A stretch of 64,000 nt of DNA, taken from the NCBI RefSeq assembly GCF_054482525.1, contig NZ_CM137006.1. The stretch is one strand, 5' to 3'. Numbering within the stretch: position 1 is the first letter of the stretch; each line of letters begins with the position of its first letter. Under the pieces are notes generated by a model, which was given only the letters and a program-made list of their open reading frames with translations, did not search any database and was not told the origin of the DNA. Positions 9,335 through 41,024 of the stretch are shown piece after piece. Position numbers and translations under genes: made by a program.

Positions 9335-12091
9335 TTACCCTAGAATTTTGCTGGCTTCGCGCGCTACATTATCCATCTCGTCCAACAGTTCCAGCAGCTC
9401 CGGCTCCAAATCTTCTTCTTTAGTACCGCTACGTAGCTGTTGTTCGATCAGTTGGCAGAGATTCTTCATACGCGGCACACCGCTATAGCCGCAACTGCCA
9501 TGCAGTTTATGAATCAAATCAACCAGGCCTTCCGGGTTTTCTCCAACCAGCTGTTCCTCAACTTTGTTGCGAACTTCAGGCAGGAAATCGAGTAACATTT
9601 GCAGCATATCGCGCGCTAAATCGGTTTTTCCTGCTGCCTGGCGTAGTGCCAGTTGCCAGTCGAGGGTCGCATTCGGGTTCACCACAATTTCGTTGACTTC
9701 GGGCGTCACGACGCGAGAGGAAATACCGCTGCCAGGCTTGTAGCGCAACAGCAAATTATGCAATCGCTCTTCTTCAATCGGTTTCGCCAGATAATCGCTC
9801 ATCCCTGCGCCAAGCAGCTTCTCTTTTTGCCCGGCCATTGCATGCGCCGTTACCGCGATAACTGGCGTTTGTTGCTGATGGGGGAGCTGGTGGATGAGTT
9901 CGCAGGCCCGAATGCCGTCCATGTCCGGCATTTGAATATCCATTAAGATCAAATCGAACGGCATCTGTTTCGCCCGTTCAACCGCCTGATGCCCGCTATC
10001 GCAAAGTTCCACATGTTGCACCATATCTTCCAGCAATGCGCCGATAAGTTTCAGGTTAGCGGGGTTGTCATCAACCGCCATGACTGTCATTGCCAGCTTA
10101 CTTTCATCGGTTACAGGCAAAAGCGTGTTTTGTTTGTGATGACAAAATTCCGTCAGGGCAGGTAACAGGCGCGTAGGTGTTAATGGTTTCAGCAGACACG
10201 CGCCGATACCATCTTGCTTAAGTTTTTCAGCATTGACTTGTGCATGGCAAGGAAGTGCCAGCATGAGAAAATCGGTCATCGATACCGCTTTCGCTAATCG
10301 CTCATGTTGCATTGTTAGCGGCTCGCGGAAGGTCACCGCAATGCCTAATAACATCATGTCGTAATGCGCGGGAGGCAGCGCGGAGAACGTTGGGCTATAA
10401 ACCACTTCCAGCGGCGTTTCACTTAAAATATCCAGCGTGCATTGCGCTGCTGCGGAGTTTGGTTCGACATAGGCCAGGCGCTTGCCGGCGAGGCACTGGG
10501 TGGATGGCCCTTCGATAATAATGTTCGGGTTCAGATCGAGATTAATGTGGAACCAGAAAGTTGAACCGCGATTCGGCTGGCTATGGAACGAAATATCGCC
10601 GCCCATTTCATTAACCAGTTTTTGTGTAATCACCAGCCCCAGCCCGGTGCCACCATGACGGCGGGAAATACTGGCATCAGCCTGTCGGAAGGCCTGGAAT
10701 AAGCGCGATTGATCGCGTTCAGGAATACCAATGCCGGTATCCCGAATCTGCACTTCAATCTGAACTTTGGTATTACTCAGCGCACGTTTTTCTACCAGAA
10801 TATCAATGTTGCCATTCTCGGTGAATTTAATTGCATTCCCTACCAGGTTAGTGATGATTTGCTGTAATCGCAGTGGGTCGCCAATTACGTTATCGGGCAC
10901 GTCGCTCTTAATATTGAGCGTCAGTTCCAGCCCTTTATCGTGAGAAGAATGTGCCAGCAGGGTAACTACTTCATCCAGCGTGCTGCGTAGTGGGAATGGA
11001 ATACTTTCCAGAATCAGCTTACCTGCTTCCAGTTTCGAGAAGTCGAGAACATCATTAATAATTGCCAGCAAATTATTTGCCGAACGTTCAATCGTATTCA
11101 GGTGATCGCGCTGCGTTGGTGTTAATTCTGTTTTCAGCGTCAGGCGGGTAAAGCCAATAACACCATTCAGTGGTGTACGCAGCTCGTGTGACATATTTGC
11201 CAAAAACTCGGATTTAATACGCGCCGCTTCCTGGGCGCGCTTTTTCGCCAGATCCAACTCAACGTTCTGAATTTCCATCTGCTCCAGCGTTTCACGCAGA
11301 TCGGACGTCGCCTGGTCGATATTGTGCTGCATCTCTTCGTGATAAGCAGCCAGCGACATTGCCATCGAGTTGATACCGTTTTTCAGCATATCCAGCTCGC
11401 CGAGCATAAATCCTTCCACCCGGCTGTCGAGTTGCCCGCGACGGATGCGGTCGACGGTATTCACCATATTGCGAATCGGACCGGTTACATCGCGCATTAA
11501 GCGCCAGCCAAAAATAAGCGCAATACCGATACAAAACAGCATCATCACGCTGGAAATAAAGATCTCTTTATATTGCTGCAAGCGAACCGATTTAAGATCC
11601 AGCTCAAGCGCAATATATCCCAACATATTTTGACTATTTTTGGCATCGCTACTGGGCGATTCGTCGGGGGAGTAACTCTCAGAAATAATCGGCGTGCGGA
11701 GGATCATAATATCGCCGTCACGAGTGACAGTGAGCTGGCGAGGAAACGGCACGTTGCTGCCGAGCTGCATTGATGAGGGATCAAGATGAAAATTGGAGGT
11801 GACAAAGAGTCGGTTATTTTCATCATAAACCGAAATCGCGCGAACAATATCGGAATGGCGACGATGCAGTACGCTTATTAACTGACCGATAGATTCGCGA
11901 TTTTGCAGGCTCATGCCATATTCAGTAGAAACTGCAAGCGGCTCAATAATGCTGGCACCGGCATCTTCCAGTTGACGCTGCAAGTCGTTATAGCGATGCA
12001 CAACGAAAAAGATACTCAGCAATAAACCAATAAGGACGGTCGGTGCCAGGATCAGAATCATCATGCGTGCGCGCAGGCTGTAGTTGGTCAT
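9335..12091 (-). CDS. barA: Hybrid sensor histidine kinase BarA (BarA/UvrY two-component system)
   Basis: 918-aa [48 protein letters not shown]... with HisKA/HATPase, receiver and HPt regions. Confidence 0.95.
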
Positions 12092-12147
12092 GGAGTTCCG
12101 TTATGGGACAATTAAGGTCACACTGTTAAATTGAGAAAGTCTCGCCA

Positions 12148-13449
12148 ATGGCGCAATTCTACTCTGCAAAACGACGCACGACGACGCGTCAGATCATAAC
12201 TGTTTCAGTCAACGACCTCGACTCTTTTGGTCAGGGCGTGGCACGACATAACGGCAAAGCGTTATTTATTCCTGGATTACTGCCACAGGAAAACGCGGAA
12301 GTTACTGTTACTGAAGATAAAAAACAGTACGCCCGCGCTAAAGTCGTGCGCCGGTTAAGCGATAGCCCGGAACGCGAAACGCCACGCTGCCCTCATTTTG
12401 GCGTATGCGGTGGCTGTCAGCAACAACACGCCAGCGTGGATTTACAGCAGCGAAGCAAAAGTGCGGCACTCGCCCGATTAATGAAACACGAAGTCTCTGA
12501 AGTGATCGCCGATGTTCCCTGGGGCTATCGCCGTCGCGCGCGTTTAAGTCTGAACTACTTACCGAAAACACAGCAACTTCAGATGGGGTTTCGCAAAGCG
12601 GGCTCCAGTGACATTGTCGACGTTAAACAATGCCCCATTTTAGTGCCCCAACTTGAAGCATTGCTGCCCAAAGTCAGGGCATGCCTGGGCAGCTTACAAG
12701 CTATGCGCCATCTTGGTCATGTTGAACTGGTACAGGCAACCAGCGGCACGCTGATGATTTTGCGCCATACCGCACCGCTAAGTTCGGCAGATCGCGAAAA
12801 ACTGGAACGCTTTTCGCATTCTGAAGGCCTGGATCTGTATCTCGCCCCCGATAGTGAGATACTCGAAACCGTCTCTGGTGAGATGCCCTGGTATGACTCA
12901 AACGGGTTGCGCTTAACTTTTAGCCCGCGCGATTTTATTCAGGTCAATGCGGGTGTGAACCAAAAAATGGTAGCGCGTGCGTTGGAATGGCTGGATGTAC
13001 AACCTGAAGATCGCGTACTGGATCTGTTCTGCGGTATGGGCAACTTTACACTGCCATTGGCGACACAAGCTGCCAGTGTGGTGGGTGTAGAAGGCGTTCC
13101 GGCGCTGGTGGAAAAAGGCCAGCAGAATGCGCGTCTTAATGGCTTACACAATGTGACGTTTTATCACGAAAATCTTGAAGAAGATGTCACAAAGCAGCCG
13201 TGGGCGAAAAACGGCTTCGATAAAGTGTTGCTGGACCCGGCGCGAGCAGGTGCCGCAGGTGTTATGCAGCAAATTATAAAACTGGAACCTATTCGTATAG
13301 TTTATGTATCCTGTAACCCTGCAACGCTGGCTCGGGATAGCGAAGCGTTATTAAAAGCAGGATATACCATTGCGCGACTGGCGATGCTGGATATGTTCCC
13401 ACACACGGGACATCTGGAATCGATGGTACTTTTCTCGCGCGTTAAATAG
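12148..13449 (+). CDS. rlmD: 23S rRNA (uracil1939-C5)-methyltransferase RlmD (RumA)
   Basis: 433-aa ORF with TRAM domain, Fe-S cysteine cluster [11 protein letters not shown] and SAM methyltransferase fold. Confidence 0.93.
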
Positions 13450-21765: not shown

Positions 21766-22019
21766 TTACACATTTATATGCGTTATAAATGGGTGGAACC
21801 TGTAAAGACTTCCACTCATTTATATTTTTTGTCGCCTCTGAAAACTCATCCATTTTGCCCATTCCGGACTAATCATTGTCATTCTCTACAAATTCTGTGG
21901 CGTTAATTTTTCTCTGGGGTGAAAATTATTGCGGTAAAGTTTGGTAGATTTTAGTCGGTATAGGATTACTTTAAATATTTAGCTTTTCAATCAATGAATT
22001 AAGTGCTCTTTAACATAAT

Positions 22020-22104
22020 GGATGTGTTGTTTGTGTGATACTGTAAAGTTGGTAGATTGTGACTGGCTTAAAAAATCATTAATTAATAATAGGTTATGTT
22101 TAGA
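22020..22104 (+). promoter_or_regulatory. AT-rich CRISPR leader immediately upstream of the first repeat
   Basis: ...ctggcttaaaaaatcattaattaataataggttatgtttaga directly abuts repeat 1; matches my recollection of the type I-E leader at the ygcE-queE CRISPR of E. coli. Confidence 0.7.
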
Positions 22105-22255
22105 GAGTTCCCCGCGCGAGCGGGGATAAACCGAAAACCACGACCTGGCGATCGGCGTGCTGGATGAGTTTCCCGCGCGAGCGGGGATAAACCGGATAGG
22201 TGTTACACATATGACCAGGCACTGGCGAGTTCCCCGCGTCAGCGGGGATAACCAT
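22105..22255 (+). CRISPR. Short type I-E CRISPR array: 3 repeats (third degenerate), 2 spacers of 32 bp
   Basis: 29-bp repeats gagttccccgcgcgagcggggataaaccg (22105-22133), gagtttcccgcgcgagcggggataaaccg (22166-22194), degenerate gagttccccgcgtcagcggggataaccat (22227-22255); spacers aaaaccacgacctggcgatcggcgtgctggat and gataggtgttacacatatgaccaggcactggc; no cas genes in the window. Confidence 0.85.
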
Positions 22256-37359: not shown

Positions 37360-38094
37360 ATGTCCAAACTCGATCTAAACGCCCTGAACGAACTGCCGAA
37401 GGTAGATCGCATTCTGGCGCTGGCAGAAACTAACGCCGAACTGGAAAAACTGGATGCTGAAGGCCGCGTTGCCTGGGCGCTGGATAATCTGCCCGGTGAA
37501 TATGTACTTTCTTCCAGTTTCGGCATTCAGGCGGCGGTGAGCCTGCATCTGGTGAATCAGATTCACCCGGATATCCCGGTGATCCTGACCGATACGGGTT
37601 ATCTGTTCCCGGAAACCTACCGCTTTATTGACGAGTTAACGGACAAACTCAAGCTCAACCTGAAAGTGTACCGCGCTACCGAAAGCGCCGCCTGGCAGGA
37701 AGCGCGCTACGGCAAACTGTGGGAGCAGGGTGTTGAAGGCATTGAAAAGTACAATGACATCAACAAAGTCGAACCGATGAACCGGGCGCTGAAAGAACTG
37801 AATGCGCAAACGTGGTTTGCTGGCCTGCGCCGCGAACAATCCGGCAGTCGCGCCAATTTACCGGTGCTGGCAATTCAGCGTGGCGTATTTAAAGTGCTGC
37901 CGATTATCGACTGGGATAACCGAACTATTTATCAGTACCTGCAAAAGCATGGCCTGAAATATCACCCATTATGGGACGAAGGATATTTATCGGTGGGCGA
38001 TACCCATACAACCTGTAAATGGGAACCCGGCATGGCGGAAGAAGAAACGCGTTTCTTTGGCTTAAAAAGGGAATGTGGGTTACACGAAGGGTAA
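37360..38094 (+). CDS. cysH: Phosphoadenosine phosphosulfate (PAPS) reductase CysH
   Basis: ORF from [60 protein letters not shown]... (244 aa); the upstream in-frame extension in the track crosses the REP element. Confidence 0.93.
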
Positions 38095-38112
38095 ATATTG
38101 CCGGATAAATTA

Positions 38113-38150
38113 AACGCCTCTGTCAGAAATGATGGGGGCGTTTTTATTTT
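38113..38150 (+). terminator. Weak hairpin plus T-run after cysH
   Basis: aaacgcc...ggcgttttt attttg; short stem with a large loop, so not a strong terminator. Confidence 0.35.
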
Positions 38151-38358
38151 GCGAGCAGCATTCCGGCATTTAAAGGTGAACATCGCAGGGAGAATTAACA
38201 GGTATAGAATGGAGTTGGGTGCTTGAGGCTGTCTGGCGTTAAGCATTCGCGAGGTTCCAGATGGACAAAAGCCCCAGGCGATATTTCTATCAACCTGAGG
38301 CCAGCGTTCGAACCTAAGCAATTCGAATGTTAGTCTCTTCTTTGCAGGGAGGCAAGAC

Positions 38359-38511
38359 ATGCTGACAAAATATGCCCTTGTGGCAATCATCGTACTGTGT
38401 TGTACAGTACTGGGATTCACGCTGATGGTAGGCGACTCGTTGTGTGAGTTGAGTATCAGAGAACGTGGTATGGAGTTTAGGGCAGTTCTCGCTTACGAAT
38501 CGAAGAAGTAG
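38359..38511 (+). CDS. Hok/Gef-family membrane toxin (type I toxin-antitoxin; hokX/sokX-type locus at the cysH-iap position)
   Basis: 50-aa [53 protein letters not shown]: N-terminal TM segment, conserved DSLCE and AYES motifs, closest to HokE as I recall it; putative mRNA 5' end gggtgcttgaggct near 38217. Confidence 0.8.
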
Positions 38512-38532
38512 CCACCACGCGGGGGTAAAACC

Positions 38533-39871
38533 CATAAGCGCTAACTTAAGGGTTGAACCATCTGAAGAATGCGACGCCTCGGTGCCTCGTTAAGACGATG
38601 CCTCGCGTTCTTCAATTGCGTTTTGTAGGCTGTCAGGGATACTGTCCCACGAATGGCCACCTGTAAGCTCCAGATGACCATTTTTGTTATTCTCCACAAC
38701 GAGTTAGTTCTTCTTTTCGGATCCGGCACTTCTGGGGGGGAAATCCAGCGATGGCTGGATTATGTCGTCAATTAAAAATGCGGCGAGTAGATTAGCAAAT
38801 ATCCACGCTTTCGCGAGTTCAGGTTCCTTTGCACGCAAAGCATCCAGGTGCAGCAAACTTTTGAGCCGCTTAAAAGCCAGTTCAATTTGCCATCGCAGAC
38901 GGTAACAATCAGCCACTTGCTCTGCTGAATATTCATCTTCCGGTAATGATGTTAGCAATAGCACATGGCCCGCTGCTTCCAGCGTTTCCGCCTGAACTAC
39001 TCGTCCTTTTCGACGATTCTCGCTGAGCAGTCGGGTTTTACTGATTAATGCTTTTTCGGGAGGAAGTGATACGGCAATGAGACGTGCCGGAAAGGGAGCT
39101 CCGGCTTTTTTATTACCTGAATTGCCTATCATTACAGTGGTTTCACCGTTCTTACCGCAATCCAGCCCGCGCAGAAAACCCATCATGTCAAAGCGCATTC
39201 CTTCTGCAGTTAACCAGCGCAATCCTCGCCAGTGAACCCGGACGATATAATCAGCTTCTCCAAAAGCAAGTGAGCGGATACATTCGGGACGCGAACCGAA
39301 TCCCCGGTCAGCAATGCGTATCTCGTCTGCCGTTTGCGCAAATCGGTCCAGCCGTTCAGCGTCTCTGCTGTCGGTTAGCTCAAAATCAGTGAACTGACAG
39401 GTATGAGGATCATATCCCATATGTAGTCGCCATTCAGCGCTGCCGCCCCCGGGCGCACTGATTGCTGTTCCATCGACAAGACGCAATCTCTTTCCGCTTG
39501 TACAACCCGTAACTGCGGCGCGTACAGCAAGTGTTTGTGCGGCAAGTATGCCAAACCAGTCGGCGGCATTCCGCAGCCGCTTCAGGAGAGCCACGTCAGA
39601 TAATGTTGCAACGTCATGGAGCTGAGCCCATGCAGTGACTTCACGTAATGACATCCCCCCGGGGCCGTAAGCCAGCCCCAGACGTAGCAGAGTTGCAGCA
39701 TCACGAATTTCGCGGCGGCGGGTTAGAGCCCCGGCATTACGTGCCGAAGTATCCAGTTCTTCGGGCTTACCAATATGGGCCAGAATTGCTGACCAGTTAT
39801 CGTGAGAGTAATTCATCGGCACGTTAAATCATATCAGGCGTAATACCACAACCCTTAAGTTAGCGCTTATG
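38533..39871 (-). mobile_element. IS186 (IS4 family) insertion sequence, about 1339 bp, flanked by a 10-bp target-site duplication gggtaaaacc
   Basis: Terminal inverted repeats cataagcgctaacttaagggttg (left) and caacccttaagttagcgcttatg (right); direct repeat gggtaaaacc on both flanks; target is the palindrome cgcgggggtaaaaccccgcg. Confidence 0.9.
38704..39816 (-). CDS. insL: IS186 transposase InsL
   Basis: ORF MNYSHDNWSAILAHIGKPEELDTSARNAGALTRRREIRDAATLLRLGLAYGPGGMSLREV... (370 aa from the MNYSHD start). Confidence 0.9.
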   Translation of the reverse strand: MNYSHDNWSAILAHIGKPEELDTSARNAGALTRRREIRDAATLLRLGLAYGPGGMSLREVTAWAQLHDVATLSDVALLKRLRNAADWFGILAAQTLAVRAAVTGCTSGKRLRLVDGTAISAPGGGSAEWRLHMGYDPHTCQFTDFELTDSRDAERLDRFAQTADEIRIADRGFGSRPECIRSLAFGEADYIVRVHWRGLRWLTAEGMRFDMMGFLRGLDCGKNGETTVMIGNSGNKKAGAPFPARLIAVSLPPEKALISKTRLLSENRRKGRVVQAETLEAAGHVLLLTSLPEDEYSAEQVADCYRLRWQIELAFKRLKSLLHLDALRAKEPELAKAWIFANLLAAFLIDDIIQPSLDFPPRSAGSEKKN

Positions 39872-39986
39872 GGGTAAAACCCCGCGTATTGAATTGTTAA
39901 AGTTTGGCCTCCTGCACCCCTTTTTTATACTCTGTTTCTGGTGGCATTGATTTCCTGCAGGCAAGGGAGTAATCATTTCAAACCCA

Positions 39987-41024
39987 TCAAGACGCCTTCG
40001 CCAGCTCCTTCACCAGCGGTAGCATTATCCGCATAACGTCACGGCAGCGACGTTCTATTCTTCCAGGAAGTGCCTTATCAATATGTTGTTGATTATCCAG
40101 TCTTACGTCATGCCAGCTATTTCCCGCAGGGAATGCAGCTGTTTTTGCGCGTTGCTGATAACCATCCTTATTCCCAAGATTCCAATTTGTTGCTTCTACC
40201 GAAAGTACGGCAATACCGGCTTTGTCGAAAACTTCGGCGTCATTACAACAGCCAGTACCCTTCGGATAATTTTTATTCAAACCCGGATTGATCGTTGCGG
40301 CAATTCCATGACTACGCGCAATTGCCAGTGCCCTGTCGCGCGTTAATTTCCTTACTGCTTCAGGGGTTTTTACACCACTGTTGAAATACAATTTATCGCC
40401 AACAATTAAGTTATCGAGATTAATCACCAGCAGCGTATTTTTCTTTTCGGTGTCACTCATCCGCTTGAGTAAATTCTCAGCACCTAATTTCCCTTCCTCT
40501 TCACCACTGGTCGCCACAAATCGAATACCATACTCGGTAGGCGTATTTTTCAGGCGTTCTGCCAGTTCCAGCATGACACCTAAACCTGCGGCATTATCAT
40601 CCATTCCTTGTAACGTCAGCCCGCCGAGATTGGCATCGGCGTCAGCATCGCTCAGCGGGGCGTAAGTATCCAGATGCGCCATAATGATGATCTGCTGCGG
40701 CGCTTTGCCTTCATGAGCGGCAATCACCGTACTTCCCGTCACGTTATGCCAGCTCTTGCGATTATCGCGGGCGGTATAAATATACCGACTATTAAATGTC
40801 CGAATATCACTGCGATAACCCATTTGCTGAAACTGTTGGCGAATATAATCGGCAGATAACATTTCTGCAGGAGTTCCGGTCATGCGTCCCGGAAAGAAAG
40901 TAGCAATATGTCGTGCCTGGGTATTAGCAAAATCGCCAGGTTTAGGTGACGAGGCGTGTACGGGGAGAATAAAGCATACGCCGAGCGCCAGGGCAGCGGT
41001 ACGGTGGCGCAATGCGGAAAACAT
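39987..41024 (-). CDS. iap: Alkaline phosphatase isozyme conversion aminopeptidase Iap
   Basis: 345-aa ORF MFSALRHRTAALALGVCFILPVHASSPKPGDFANTQARHIATFFPGRMTG... Confidence 0.88.
   Translation of the reverse strand: MFSALRHRTAALALGVCFILPVHASSPKPGDFANTQARHIATFFPGRMTGTPAEMLSADYIRQQFQQMGYRSDIRTFNSRYIYTARDNRKSWHNVTGSTVIAAHEGKAPQQIIIMAHLDTYAPLSDADADANLGGLTLQGMDDNAAGLGVMLELAERLKNTPTEYGIRFVATSGEEEGKLGAENLLKRMSDTEKKNTLLVINLDNLIVGDKLYFNSGVKTPEAVRKLTRDRALAIARSHGIAATINPGLNKNYPKGTGCCNDAEVFDKAGIAVLSVEATNWNLGNKDGYQQRAKTAAFPAGNSWHDVRLDNQQHIDKALPGRIERRCRDVMRIMLPLVKELAKAS

Follow-up and report, generated by a model that had tools for sequence, protein, structure and literature searches.

A described cas-less allele of the iap-cysH region carrying a simple IS186 insertion in an Escherichia coli strain close to PCN033

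The closest described relative of the locus studied here is arrangement B of the E. coli iap-cysH region (Almendros et al. 2014, mBio, PMC3903273). It consists of cysH, a conserved intergenic region, hok/sok, IG3, a short IG6 and iap; it has no cas-E genes, leader or CRISPR2.1 and keeps the orphan array CRISPR2.3 at ygcE-queE. The same organization has also been named 'Region B without CRISPR-Cas components' (PMC12736100), in a work where the iap-cysH region of urinary isolates was without CRISPR-Cas in 54% of cases and hok and sokX adjoined cysH in 90%. In the parsimony model of PMC3903273, a deletion in a cas-E1 ancestor gave rise to the cas-less arrangement. The same paper gives the target preference of IS186 as a GC-rich GGGG(N)CCCC-type site and places a hot spot for this element at the boundary of IG2 and IG3; in the text of that paper, IS186 at IG2/IG3 is described for the cas+ arrangements D-F, and the derivative of B (arrangement C) bears an uncharacterized IS, 'ISu'. 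For gef/hokC, an IS186 located downstream is thought to break up the fold-back element of the mRNA (PMC3562002).

The window, i.e. the whole stretch of 64,000 nucleotides that was analysed, contains the components of arrangement B in the same order and differs from it by an additional IS186 at the IG2/IG3 hot spot. The list of open reading frames and the sequence itself place the cysH stop at 38094 and the iap stop at 39987, exactly where the original prediction had put them. The DNA between these two points contains nothing beyond the cysH terminator, the hok/sok locus, a single intact IS186 and a spacer of 58 bp. With the IS removed the interval is 546 bp long, and every base pair of it could be assigned to non-cas features. 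Its left border is cysH (37360-38094, plus strand), encoding PAPS reductase, which was identified as an ORF with a match to Pfam PAPS_reduct (E=2e-58) and is 100% identical to cysH of PCN033. A terminator scan located the intrinsic terminator of this gene, a 14-bp stem followed by a T-run, at 38112-38153 (plus strand). An Rfam ctRNA_p42d match at 38110-38152 scored 24.9 bits, below the gathering score, and was rejected; it is really the hairpin of the cysH terminator. The right border is iap (39987-41024, minus strand), encoding an M28 aminopeptidase (Pfam Peptidase_M28). The 11 bp next to iap (39976-39986) are part of 'IG6' and are common to all Escherichia alleles, both cas+ and cas-; when the K-12, BL21 and cas-E1 loci were aligned to the window, homology restarted at 39976.

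The toxin locus adjoining cysH begins with the 5′ leader of the hok mRNA and the antisense sok region (38217-38374, plus strand). Here the Rfam sok family (RF01794) matched over its full length with 111.7 bits (E=6.6e-26), well above its gathering score of 59, and K-12 sokX, carried over from the K-12 annotation by alignment, falls at 38261-38319 on the minus strand. The hok-family toxin CDS of this 'hokX' locus codes for 50 aa (38359-38511, plus strand; Pfam HOK_GEF, 38.3 bits), and the equivalent position is annotated 'Hok/Gef family protein' in PCN033, BL21, ETEC1738 and O157:H7. For the overlapping mok frame, which would couple hok translation and was compared only with K-12 mokC, no ATG, GTG or TTG lies in frame upstream of the hok ATG as far as the preceding stop. 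Downstream of the hok stop lies the left half of a GC hairpin, CGCGGGGG-TAAAA-CCCCGCG (38518-38532, plus strand), which is the target of IS186 and holds the left copy of the target duplication. The displaced 3′ end of the hok mRNA (39882-39928, plus strand) corresponds to 'IG3' of Almendros 2014. Within it, the right arm of the hairpin is followed by GGCCTCCTGCACCCC, the fold-back element (39906-39920), and by a T-run at 39921-39926. The 3′ element GGCCUCCUGCACCC is complementary to GGGUGCUUGAGGC on the 5′ side with two internal mismatches (predicted duplex -24.3 kcal/mol). In the fold of lowest predicted energy, however, the partner of the 3′ element is the hok Shine-Dalgarno region and not the 5′ end of the mRNA. 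The element is kept in hok loci of other genera; in the window it is now 1.35 kb off, with IS186 in between. The original prediction also described the hok 3′ region as almost touching the 3′ end of iap, and the distance from the hok 3′ end to the iap stop is indeed about 60 bp.

IS186 (IS4 family; 'IS421' in the RefSeq annotation) occupies 1339 bp in the minus orientation (38533-39871). Its ends are terminal inverted repeats of 23 bp (38533-38555 and 39849-39871), and it encodes an intact transposase of 370 aa (38704-39816, minus strand; Pfam DDE_Tnp_1). There are 0 differences between this copy and those of BL21 and K-12 (IS186A), and the transposase is the same as that of BL21. The element is located in a GGGG-N-CCCC hairpin 21 nt past the hok stop. 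The duplication test identified a 10-bp target duplication, GGGTAAAACC, at 38523-38532 and 39872-39881 (plus strand). It sits inside CGCGGGGGTAAAACCCCGCG, a GC-rich GGGG(N)CCCC-type target, and its length is within the approximately 10-12 bp typical of IS186. The IS186 hot spot at the lon promoter likewise fits a preference for GC-rich targets. When both flanks of the element are rejoined they give an uninterrupted hairpin, and such a hairpin is found in PCN033 and in 1106 genomes.

The comparison with PCN033 shows what the insertion changed. Over 41 kb the window is collinear with this genome and 99.99% identical to it, four SNPs and the IS186 being all the differences. PCN033 carries the uninterrupted cas-less site with flanks 100% identical to those of the window. 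As the sole structural difference from a 99.99%-identical genome, the IS186 insertion is recent and simple, and nothing was removed by it. The original prediction had taken the element for a simple insertion with an intact duplication that was not the agent of a deletion, and the exact empty site in PCN033 supports this. IS186 is present at the hairpin in at least 619 genomes when a longer query is used, and the right junction is intact in 331. A figure of 1371 genomes obtained with a 90-bp left junction was discarded as inflated, since the K-12 hokC-IS186A junction also aligns with that query at 86.7%. In the window the insertion would part the body of the hok mRNA from its 3′ fold-back element. 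The toxin locus may thereby be deregulated or inactivated, as has been proposed for K-12 hokC/gef.

A type I-E system, recognized by cas3, the Cascade genes, cas1 and cas2, was not found in the 64-kb window by tblastn: searches with Cas3, CasA, Cas7 and Cas1 (one or both E. coli I-E variants) returned zero matches across it. A pattern search allowing up to 3 mismatches detected no I-E repeat between cysH and iap. The best local alignment of the I-E repeat to the IS-free interval lies on the hok hairpin and is not significant (p about 0.10, Smith-Waterman with shuffles). Thus the statement that this interval holds neither a cas ORF nor a CRISPR repeat stands under sensitive alignment as well, and the search for repeat or leader remnants by local alignment to the I-E repeat, recommended together with that statement, yielded nothing significant. 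The alignment with K-12 and with cas-less E. coli, recommended likewise, identified the interval as the known cas-less allele, in which the cas-E genes are missing altogether, as are the leader and CRISPR2.1. PCN033, which is nearly identical, lacks I-E cas genes at cysH-iap, and its clpA-infA interval contains no I-F cas genes. The appropriate record for the strain of the window is absence of type I-E CRISPR-Cas from the canonical site, as in about one fifth of complete E. coli genomes.

The allele is widely distributed. Its 59-bp junction was found in 1127 of 5426 complete E. coli genomes (approximately 21%), ST131 and E2348/69 among them, always in one copy and with an identity of at least 99% in 1119 of the 1127. 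The empty-site allele, 952 bp long, occurs without a break in 1106 of the 5426 genomes, three of which are 100% identical to it. Arrangement B combined with IS186 and its duplication was seen only in ETEC1738 among the 5426. The cas-less allele also occurs, in diverged form, in E. whittamii, Escherichia sp. E1V33 and 'E. coli E69', where its divergence is similar to that of iap and cysH. The arrangement is already described, common and ordinary; the common junction and the presence in sister Escherichia species indicate that the allele is old.

A segment of 47 bp, ACTCTGTTTCTGGTGGCATTGATTTCCTGCAGGCAAGGGAGTAATCA (39929-39975, no strand assigned), is peculiar to the cas-less allele and absent from the cas-E1, K-12 and BL21 loci. 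The cas-E1 strains O157:H7 and NMBU-W13E19 are homologous to the window from 38095 through 39925/39928. Relative to these strains about 9.8 kb, from the end of the hok mRNA to 11 bp beyond the iap stop, is swapped for 47 unrelated bp. Smith-Waterman alignment with shuffles detected no significant similarity of the segment to the repeat consensus, the terminal repeat region, the leader or the cas3-side intergenic regions (p 0.48-1.0), nor to the K-12 intergenic regions. A likeness noticed by eye between CCTGCAGGCAAG in the segment and CCTGCGGTAGAA in the terminal degenerate repeat was rejected, as its scores do not exceed the shuffle mean. When all complete E. coli genomes were searched by blastn, the segment was returned from the junction alone, in 1127 genomes; in 80 iap loci of other species (blastn-short) it was found only at Escherichia cas-less loci. 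It is 84-91% identical in E. whittamii, E1V33 and 'E. coli E69', where iap is 92-96% identical. Because the 47 bp have no detectable source, plain deletion of any cas+ allele examined is insufficient to produce the junction, and the published 'deletion of the IG6-IG3 intervening region' is incomplete at base level. The 47 bp left unexplained by plain deletion go beyond the published description. So does the allele in sister Escherichia species, which makes the polarity of gain and loss here less settled than the parsimony model suggests.

The only sequence of the window in which 29-bp repeats, 32-bp spacers and a leader come together is the orphan type I-E array CRISPR2.3 between queE/ygcF and ygcE (22105-22255, plus strand). 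The array has three repeats, the last one degenerate, and two spacers of 32 bp, and an AT-rich leader lies upstream of it (about 21800-22104). Both spacers together are common only to PCN033, SCU-102 and 19KM1776. The trailer-end spacer is common to approximately 39 genomes, among which the leader-proximal spacers differ. B2 strains too retain the terminal degenerate repeat of this array (UM146). To our knowledge such arrays are built only by the I-E Cas1-Cas2 proteins, which implies that ancestors of the lineage, or donors of the segment, possessed a I-E system. The array might itself come from a cas+ donor by recombination. Its differences from related strains might reflect differential spacer loss and not new acquisition.

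Taken together, the interval is most probably the known cas-less allele (arrangement B) in a strain near PCN033 with a recent simple IS186 insertion, the absence of cas being an old loss. The orphan I-E array with lineage-specific spacers 16 kb away suggests that the ancestors had a working I-E system, and the array would survive from that state. The loss might be the ancestral deletion proposed in the literature. Alternatively, recombination in the conserved cys genes may later have put the circulating cas-less allele in place of a cas+ one. The original prediction supposed that cas was never present in this lineage; in that form it is not supported, given a I-E array with a leader and lineage-specific spacers in the same window. 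It is partly favoured by the finding that the loss was neither recent nor local, the same junction being present in 1127 genomes and in sister species.

The explanation nearest to that supposition is that cysH-hok-iap is the ancestral empty site of Escherichia, that cas-E was never here, and that the I-E cassette was inserted later elsewhere and replaced the 47 bp. We regard it as distinctly unlikely, although several observations agree with it. The interval bears no scar of repeats, leader or cas, the 47 bp are unrelated to any part of a cas+ allele, and the arrangement in E. whittamii, E1V33 and 'E. coli E69' is alike. Moreover, hok adjoins iap without cas in Pseudocitrobacter, Atlantibacter, Lelliottia and another enterobacterium, and iap and cysH are direct neighbours in many Citrobacter and Enterobacter species. 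Against it stand the orphan I-E array with its leader and lineage-specific spacers in the window, the terminal repeat kept in B2 strains, and the published parsimony analysis, which prefers deletion (PMC3903273). In addition, I-E CRISPR-cas is found at the 3′ end of iap in E. albertii, Salmonella, Citrobacter, Klebsiella, Raoultella and others, suggesting an old association. The iap tail with IG6, GCGTCTTGATGGGTTTGAAA, seems slightly nearer to the tails that border CRISPR in Salmonella and C. amalonaticus than to those of other genera in which hok abuts iap. As a sign of an earlier CRISPR the tail was given little weight: cas+ and cas- Raoultella share a tail of their own, so it follows the lineage and not the cassette.

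An unlikely extension of the same idea would make the cas-less allele the original empty site of the genus, maintained as a long-lived trans-species polymorphism. The I-E cassette would then be a movable block, precisely inserted and removed between iap and the point where the hok transcript ends, and exchanged via the conserved cys genes. If so, the 47 bp would be the sole surviving piece of the pre-insertion site, and the block would extend from the cas3 promoter region through the terminal repeat.

A different reading makes IS186 the cause of the cas loss in the window, as in E. coli B/BL21: the element would have deleted the DNA beside it, or two of its copies would have recombined. Recombination of IS186 is proposed in the literature for the BL21-type arrangement (PMC3903273), and in BL21, REL606, E. 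coli C and many others the left junction is exactly the same, with cas gone and the CRISPR array on the right-hand side truncated. For the window this is very improbable: the 10-bp duplication is perfect and the flanks join into an uninterrupted hairpin, the cas-less junction (39929-39975) is at least 50 bp from IS186 and occurs in 1106 genomes without IS186 there, and the uninterrupted cas-less site of PCN033 with its 100% identical flanks refutes it. The probability is negligible that cas is missing only because the assembly collapsed or was wrongly joined at the IS186 repeat. IS elements are often points of mis-joining in short-read assemblies, but the IS186 junctions rejoin to a site contiguous in 1106 finished genomes, PCN033 is collinear with the flanks for 41 kb, and in the complete genome of ETEC1738 the layout is identical down to IS186 and its duplication.

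The locus of BL21(DE3), or E. coli B ('arrangement G'), resembles the window in its hok locus, in the position, orientation, left junction and identical sequence of IS186, and in the absence of cas. It differs in the right flank, where IS186 is followed by GGGGTTTTTCCCC and then by five full and one degenerate I-E repeats, and it has no target duplication, hok 3′ element or 47-bp segment. By these flanks, the BL21 locus is an IS-associated deletion of a cas+ allele and not the cas-less allele. The two loci thus provide a diagnostic contrast: a simple IS186 insertion has a duplication and an empty site that rejoins, whereas the IS186-associated cas deletion of B-type strains has the same left junction and a foreign right flank.

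K-12 MG1655 (cas-E2, 'arrangement H') shares with the window the flanking genes, the cysH terminator, the sokX part (window 38095-38361) and the 11 bp beside iap. Its annotated order is iap, CRISPR, cas2, cas1, casEDCBA, cas3, sokX and cysH, and what the original prediction stated about K-12 is correct. Where the window has the hok CDS, its 3′ region and the 47 bp, K-12 has 9.68 kb comprising the CRISPR, the leader, cas2 to cas3 and 92 bp. Only sokX remains of the toxin locus there, and homology to the window stops at 38361. The interruption of the toxin locus has its counterparts in K-12 hokC (gef) and hokE, paralogous loci elsewhere in the chromosome, where IS186 is found 22 and 21 nt past the stop, respectively, in the equivalent GGGG-N-CCCC hairpin and parts the ORF from the fold-back element; at hokE the IS186 is oppositely oriented. 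Beyond correct annotation the significance of the locus is small; the strain retains an orphan array and a hok/sok locus freshly interrupted by IS186.

The interval between cysH and iap is bounded by the cysH stop at 38094 and, on the minus strand, by the iap stop at 39987, both where the original prediction had placed them. An intrinsic terminator of cysH (38112-38143, then a T-run) comes first. The leader of hok mRNA, with the sok antisense region, follows at 38217-38374 (an Rfam sok match of 111.7 bits, the gathering score being 59), and then a Hok/Gef ORF of 50 amino acids (38359-38511). A second Rfam match, ctRNA_p42d at 38110-38152, scored 24.9 bits, below threshold, and was discarded as a false lead, being the cysH terminator hairpin. 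A GC hairpin (CGCGGGGG-TAAAA-CCCCGCG) is interrupted by IS186 (38533-39871, 1339 bp), which has 23-bp terminal inverted repeats, an intact DDE transposase of 370 amino acids on the minus strand and a 10-bp direct duplication, GGGTAAAACC, on both sides. The leftover 3′ end of the hok transcript (39882-39928), an unassigned 47-bp segment (39929-39975) and 11 bp adjoining the iap stop follow.

The prediction that this interval holds neither cas genes nor CRISPR was borne out. The I-E repeat was absent in a search tolerating up to three mismatches, and its top local alignment to the IS-free interval was not significant and lay at the hok hairpin. Analysis by tblastn with Cas3, Cas7 and Cas1 from both E. 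coli I-E cas variants (cas-E1 and cas-E2), and CasA from one of them, gave no match to I-E Cas proteins anywhere in the window. No cas remnants or repeats, set beforehand as the refuting evidence, were detected by sensitive search of the interval, and the K-12 order assumed in the prediction (iap, CRISPR, cas2, cas1, casEDCBA, cas3, sokX, cysH) is correct. I-F cas genes were not found between clpA and infA in strain PCN033; that interval (L091 43479-44343), only some 865 bp long, is occupied by serW together with a feature labelled 'RtT sRNA'.

IS186 had been proposed to be a simple insertion and not the agent of a deletion. This is supported by the duplication and by the IS-free sequence being contiguous in PCN033. 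Only four substitutions over 41 kb, plus IS186, separate the window from PCN033, and the insertion is therefore very recent as well as simple. Among complete genomes only ETEC1738 combines the cas-less allele with IS186 and the duplication in this way; since its flanks differ from those of the window, the two insertions probably occurred independently. The ETEC1738 copy is 1338 bp long, one G short in a G-run (L001 3830-3850), and its transposase is annotated as frameshifted. The flanks in ETEC1738 encode the Hok variant of BL21, pointing to either an independent insertion or a background that is recombinant.

At least 619 genomes carry IS186 at this same point; the hok 3′ end is intact after it in 331 of these, nearly all with the flank variant of the cas-E1 comparison strains. 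K-12 has IS186A 22 nt past the stop of hokC and IS186B 21 nt past that of hokE, in both cases within a GGGG-N-CCCC hairpin equivalent to the one in the window. The same structural position has been hit in three paralogous hok loci. The boundary of the published intergenic regions IG2 and IG3 has been named a GC-rich IS186 hot spot (PMC3903273), and the insertion described here is a routine one.

The hok 3′ element GGCCUCCUGCACCC (39906-39919) now lies 1.35 kb away from the hok ORF. Both the 5′ end of hok mRNA and the region where ribosomes bind hok are complementary to it. Folding of the reconstructed mRNA gives a minimum-energy structure in which the element (39906-39920) pairs with the Shine-Dalgarno region UGCAGGGAGGCAAG (38334-38350) and not with the 5′ end, both pairings being possible. 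IS186 3′ of gef/hokC is thought to disrupt normal processing of the mRNA as well as its fold-back element (PMC3562002); we infer that the hok locus of the window would be deregulated or inactive.

With IS186 removed in silico, cysH-hok-iap is found as one uninterrupted stretch in 1106 of 5426 complete E. coli genomes, with 100% identity in PCN033, SCU-102 and 19KM1776. The 59-bp junction of the cas-less allele is present in exactly one copy per genome in 1127 genomes, with at least 99% identity in 1119 of them, ST131 and E2348/69 included. Strain 2012C-4221 (L087 35389-37705) has this junction, yet it encodes the same Hok protein as BL21 and the same Iap protein as NMBU-W13E19, a cas+ strain. 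This hints that the junction moves from one background to another in short recombination tracts.

It had also been proposed that cas was never present in this lineage, and of this an old cas-less state stands. E. whittamii, Escherichia sp. E1V33 and 'E. coli E69' are organised in the same way, their iap being 92-96% identical and their versions of the 47 bp 84-91% identical, and in Pseudocitrobacter, Atlantibacter and Lelliottia hok lies directly against the iap stop without cas. No relative of the 47-bp segment was detected in any cas+ allele examined, so a plain deletion does not produce this layout, arrangement B of the published CRISPR-I locus types. On our reading the absence of cas is old, either inherited or gained as a ready-made allele; the local IS186 did not cause it. 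In Pseudocitrobacter (L025 and L030, ~11030-12260) hok/sok and cysH DNA is 91-98% identical to that of E. coli and the neighbouring iap 73%, which looks like horizontal transfer of a cysH-hok segment between genera.

The word 'never', however, was not supported. The iap 3′ end carries I-E CRISPR-cas in E. albertii, Salmonella, Citrobacter, Klebsiella, Raoultella and other genera, and the window itself contains an orphan array of type I-E, leader included, at the CRISPR2.3 site between queE and ygcE (21800-22255). Two spacers of 32 bp separate its three repeats, located at 22105, 22166 and 22227. Of these spacers the one nearer the leader, AAAACCACGACCTGGCGATCGGCGTGCTGGAT, and hence the pair, was found only in PCN033, SCU-102 and 19KM1776, and the trailer-end spacer GATAGGTGTTACACATATGACCAGGCACTGGC is common to about 39 genomes. 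All of the latter that were cross-checked by name against matches to the IS-free allele, and two that were inspected, are cas-less; the inspected strains, 1190 and 2012C-4221, have leader-proximal spacers unlike those of the window and unlike each other. To our knowledge such arrays are made only by I-E Cas1-Cas2, so I-E was active in ancestors of the clade or in donors of the segment. We therefore take I-E activity to be part of the history of this lineage.

K-12, which carries cas-E2, matches the window from cysH through 38361 (the hok start codon) and again homologous from 39976, but has 9.68 kb where the window has the hok ORF, the hok 3′ region and the 47 bp. The cas-E1 strains O157:H7 FWSEC0004 and NMBU-W13E19 retain the complete hok locus, as does the window, and match it up to 39925/39928, the T-run closing the hok transcript; beyond this they have AT-rich sequence from upstream of cas3, and homology resumes at 39976. 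BL21(DE3) shares the left IS186 junction; unlike in the window, there is no duplication, and CRISPR repeats come after a right-hand flank of GGGGTTTTTCCCC. This sequence (L002 4971-5000) is a second IS186-type target immediately before the first repeat, and the flank fits removal of cas by recombination of two IS186 copies or by adjacent deletion. IS186-associated cas loss looks like BL21(DE3), and the window does not show such a pattern. Almendros et al. 2014 defined nine CRISPR-I arrangements, with A (cas-E1 with hok/sok) regarded as ancestral, the cas-less B as derived from a cas-E1 ancestor through deletion, and G, the B-strain type, as having arisen via IS186 recombination (PMC3903273). 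In a 2025 survey, CRISPR-Cas was missing from iap-cysH in 54% of urinary isolates, and hok and sokX together lay beside cysH in 90% (PMC12736100). The original observation is thus correct but ordinary, the allele being already known and common: the window has arrangement B plus an additional IS186.
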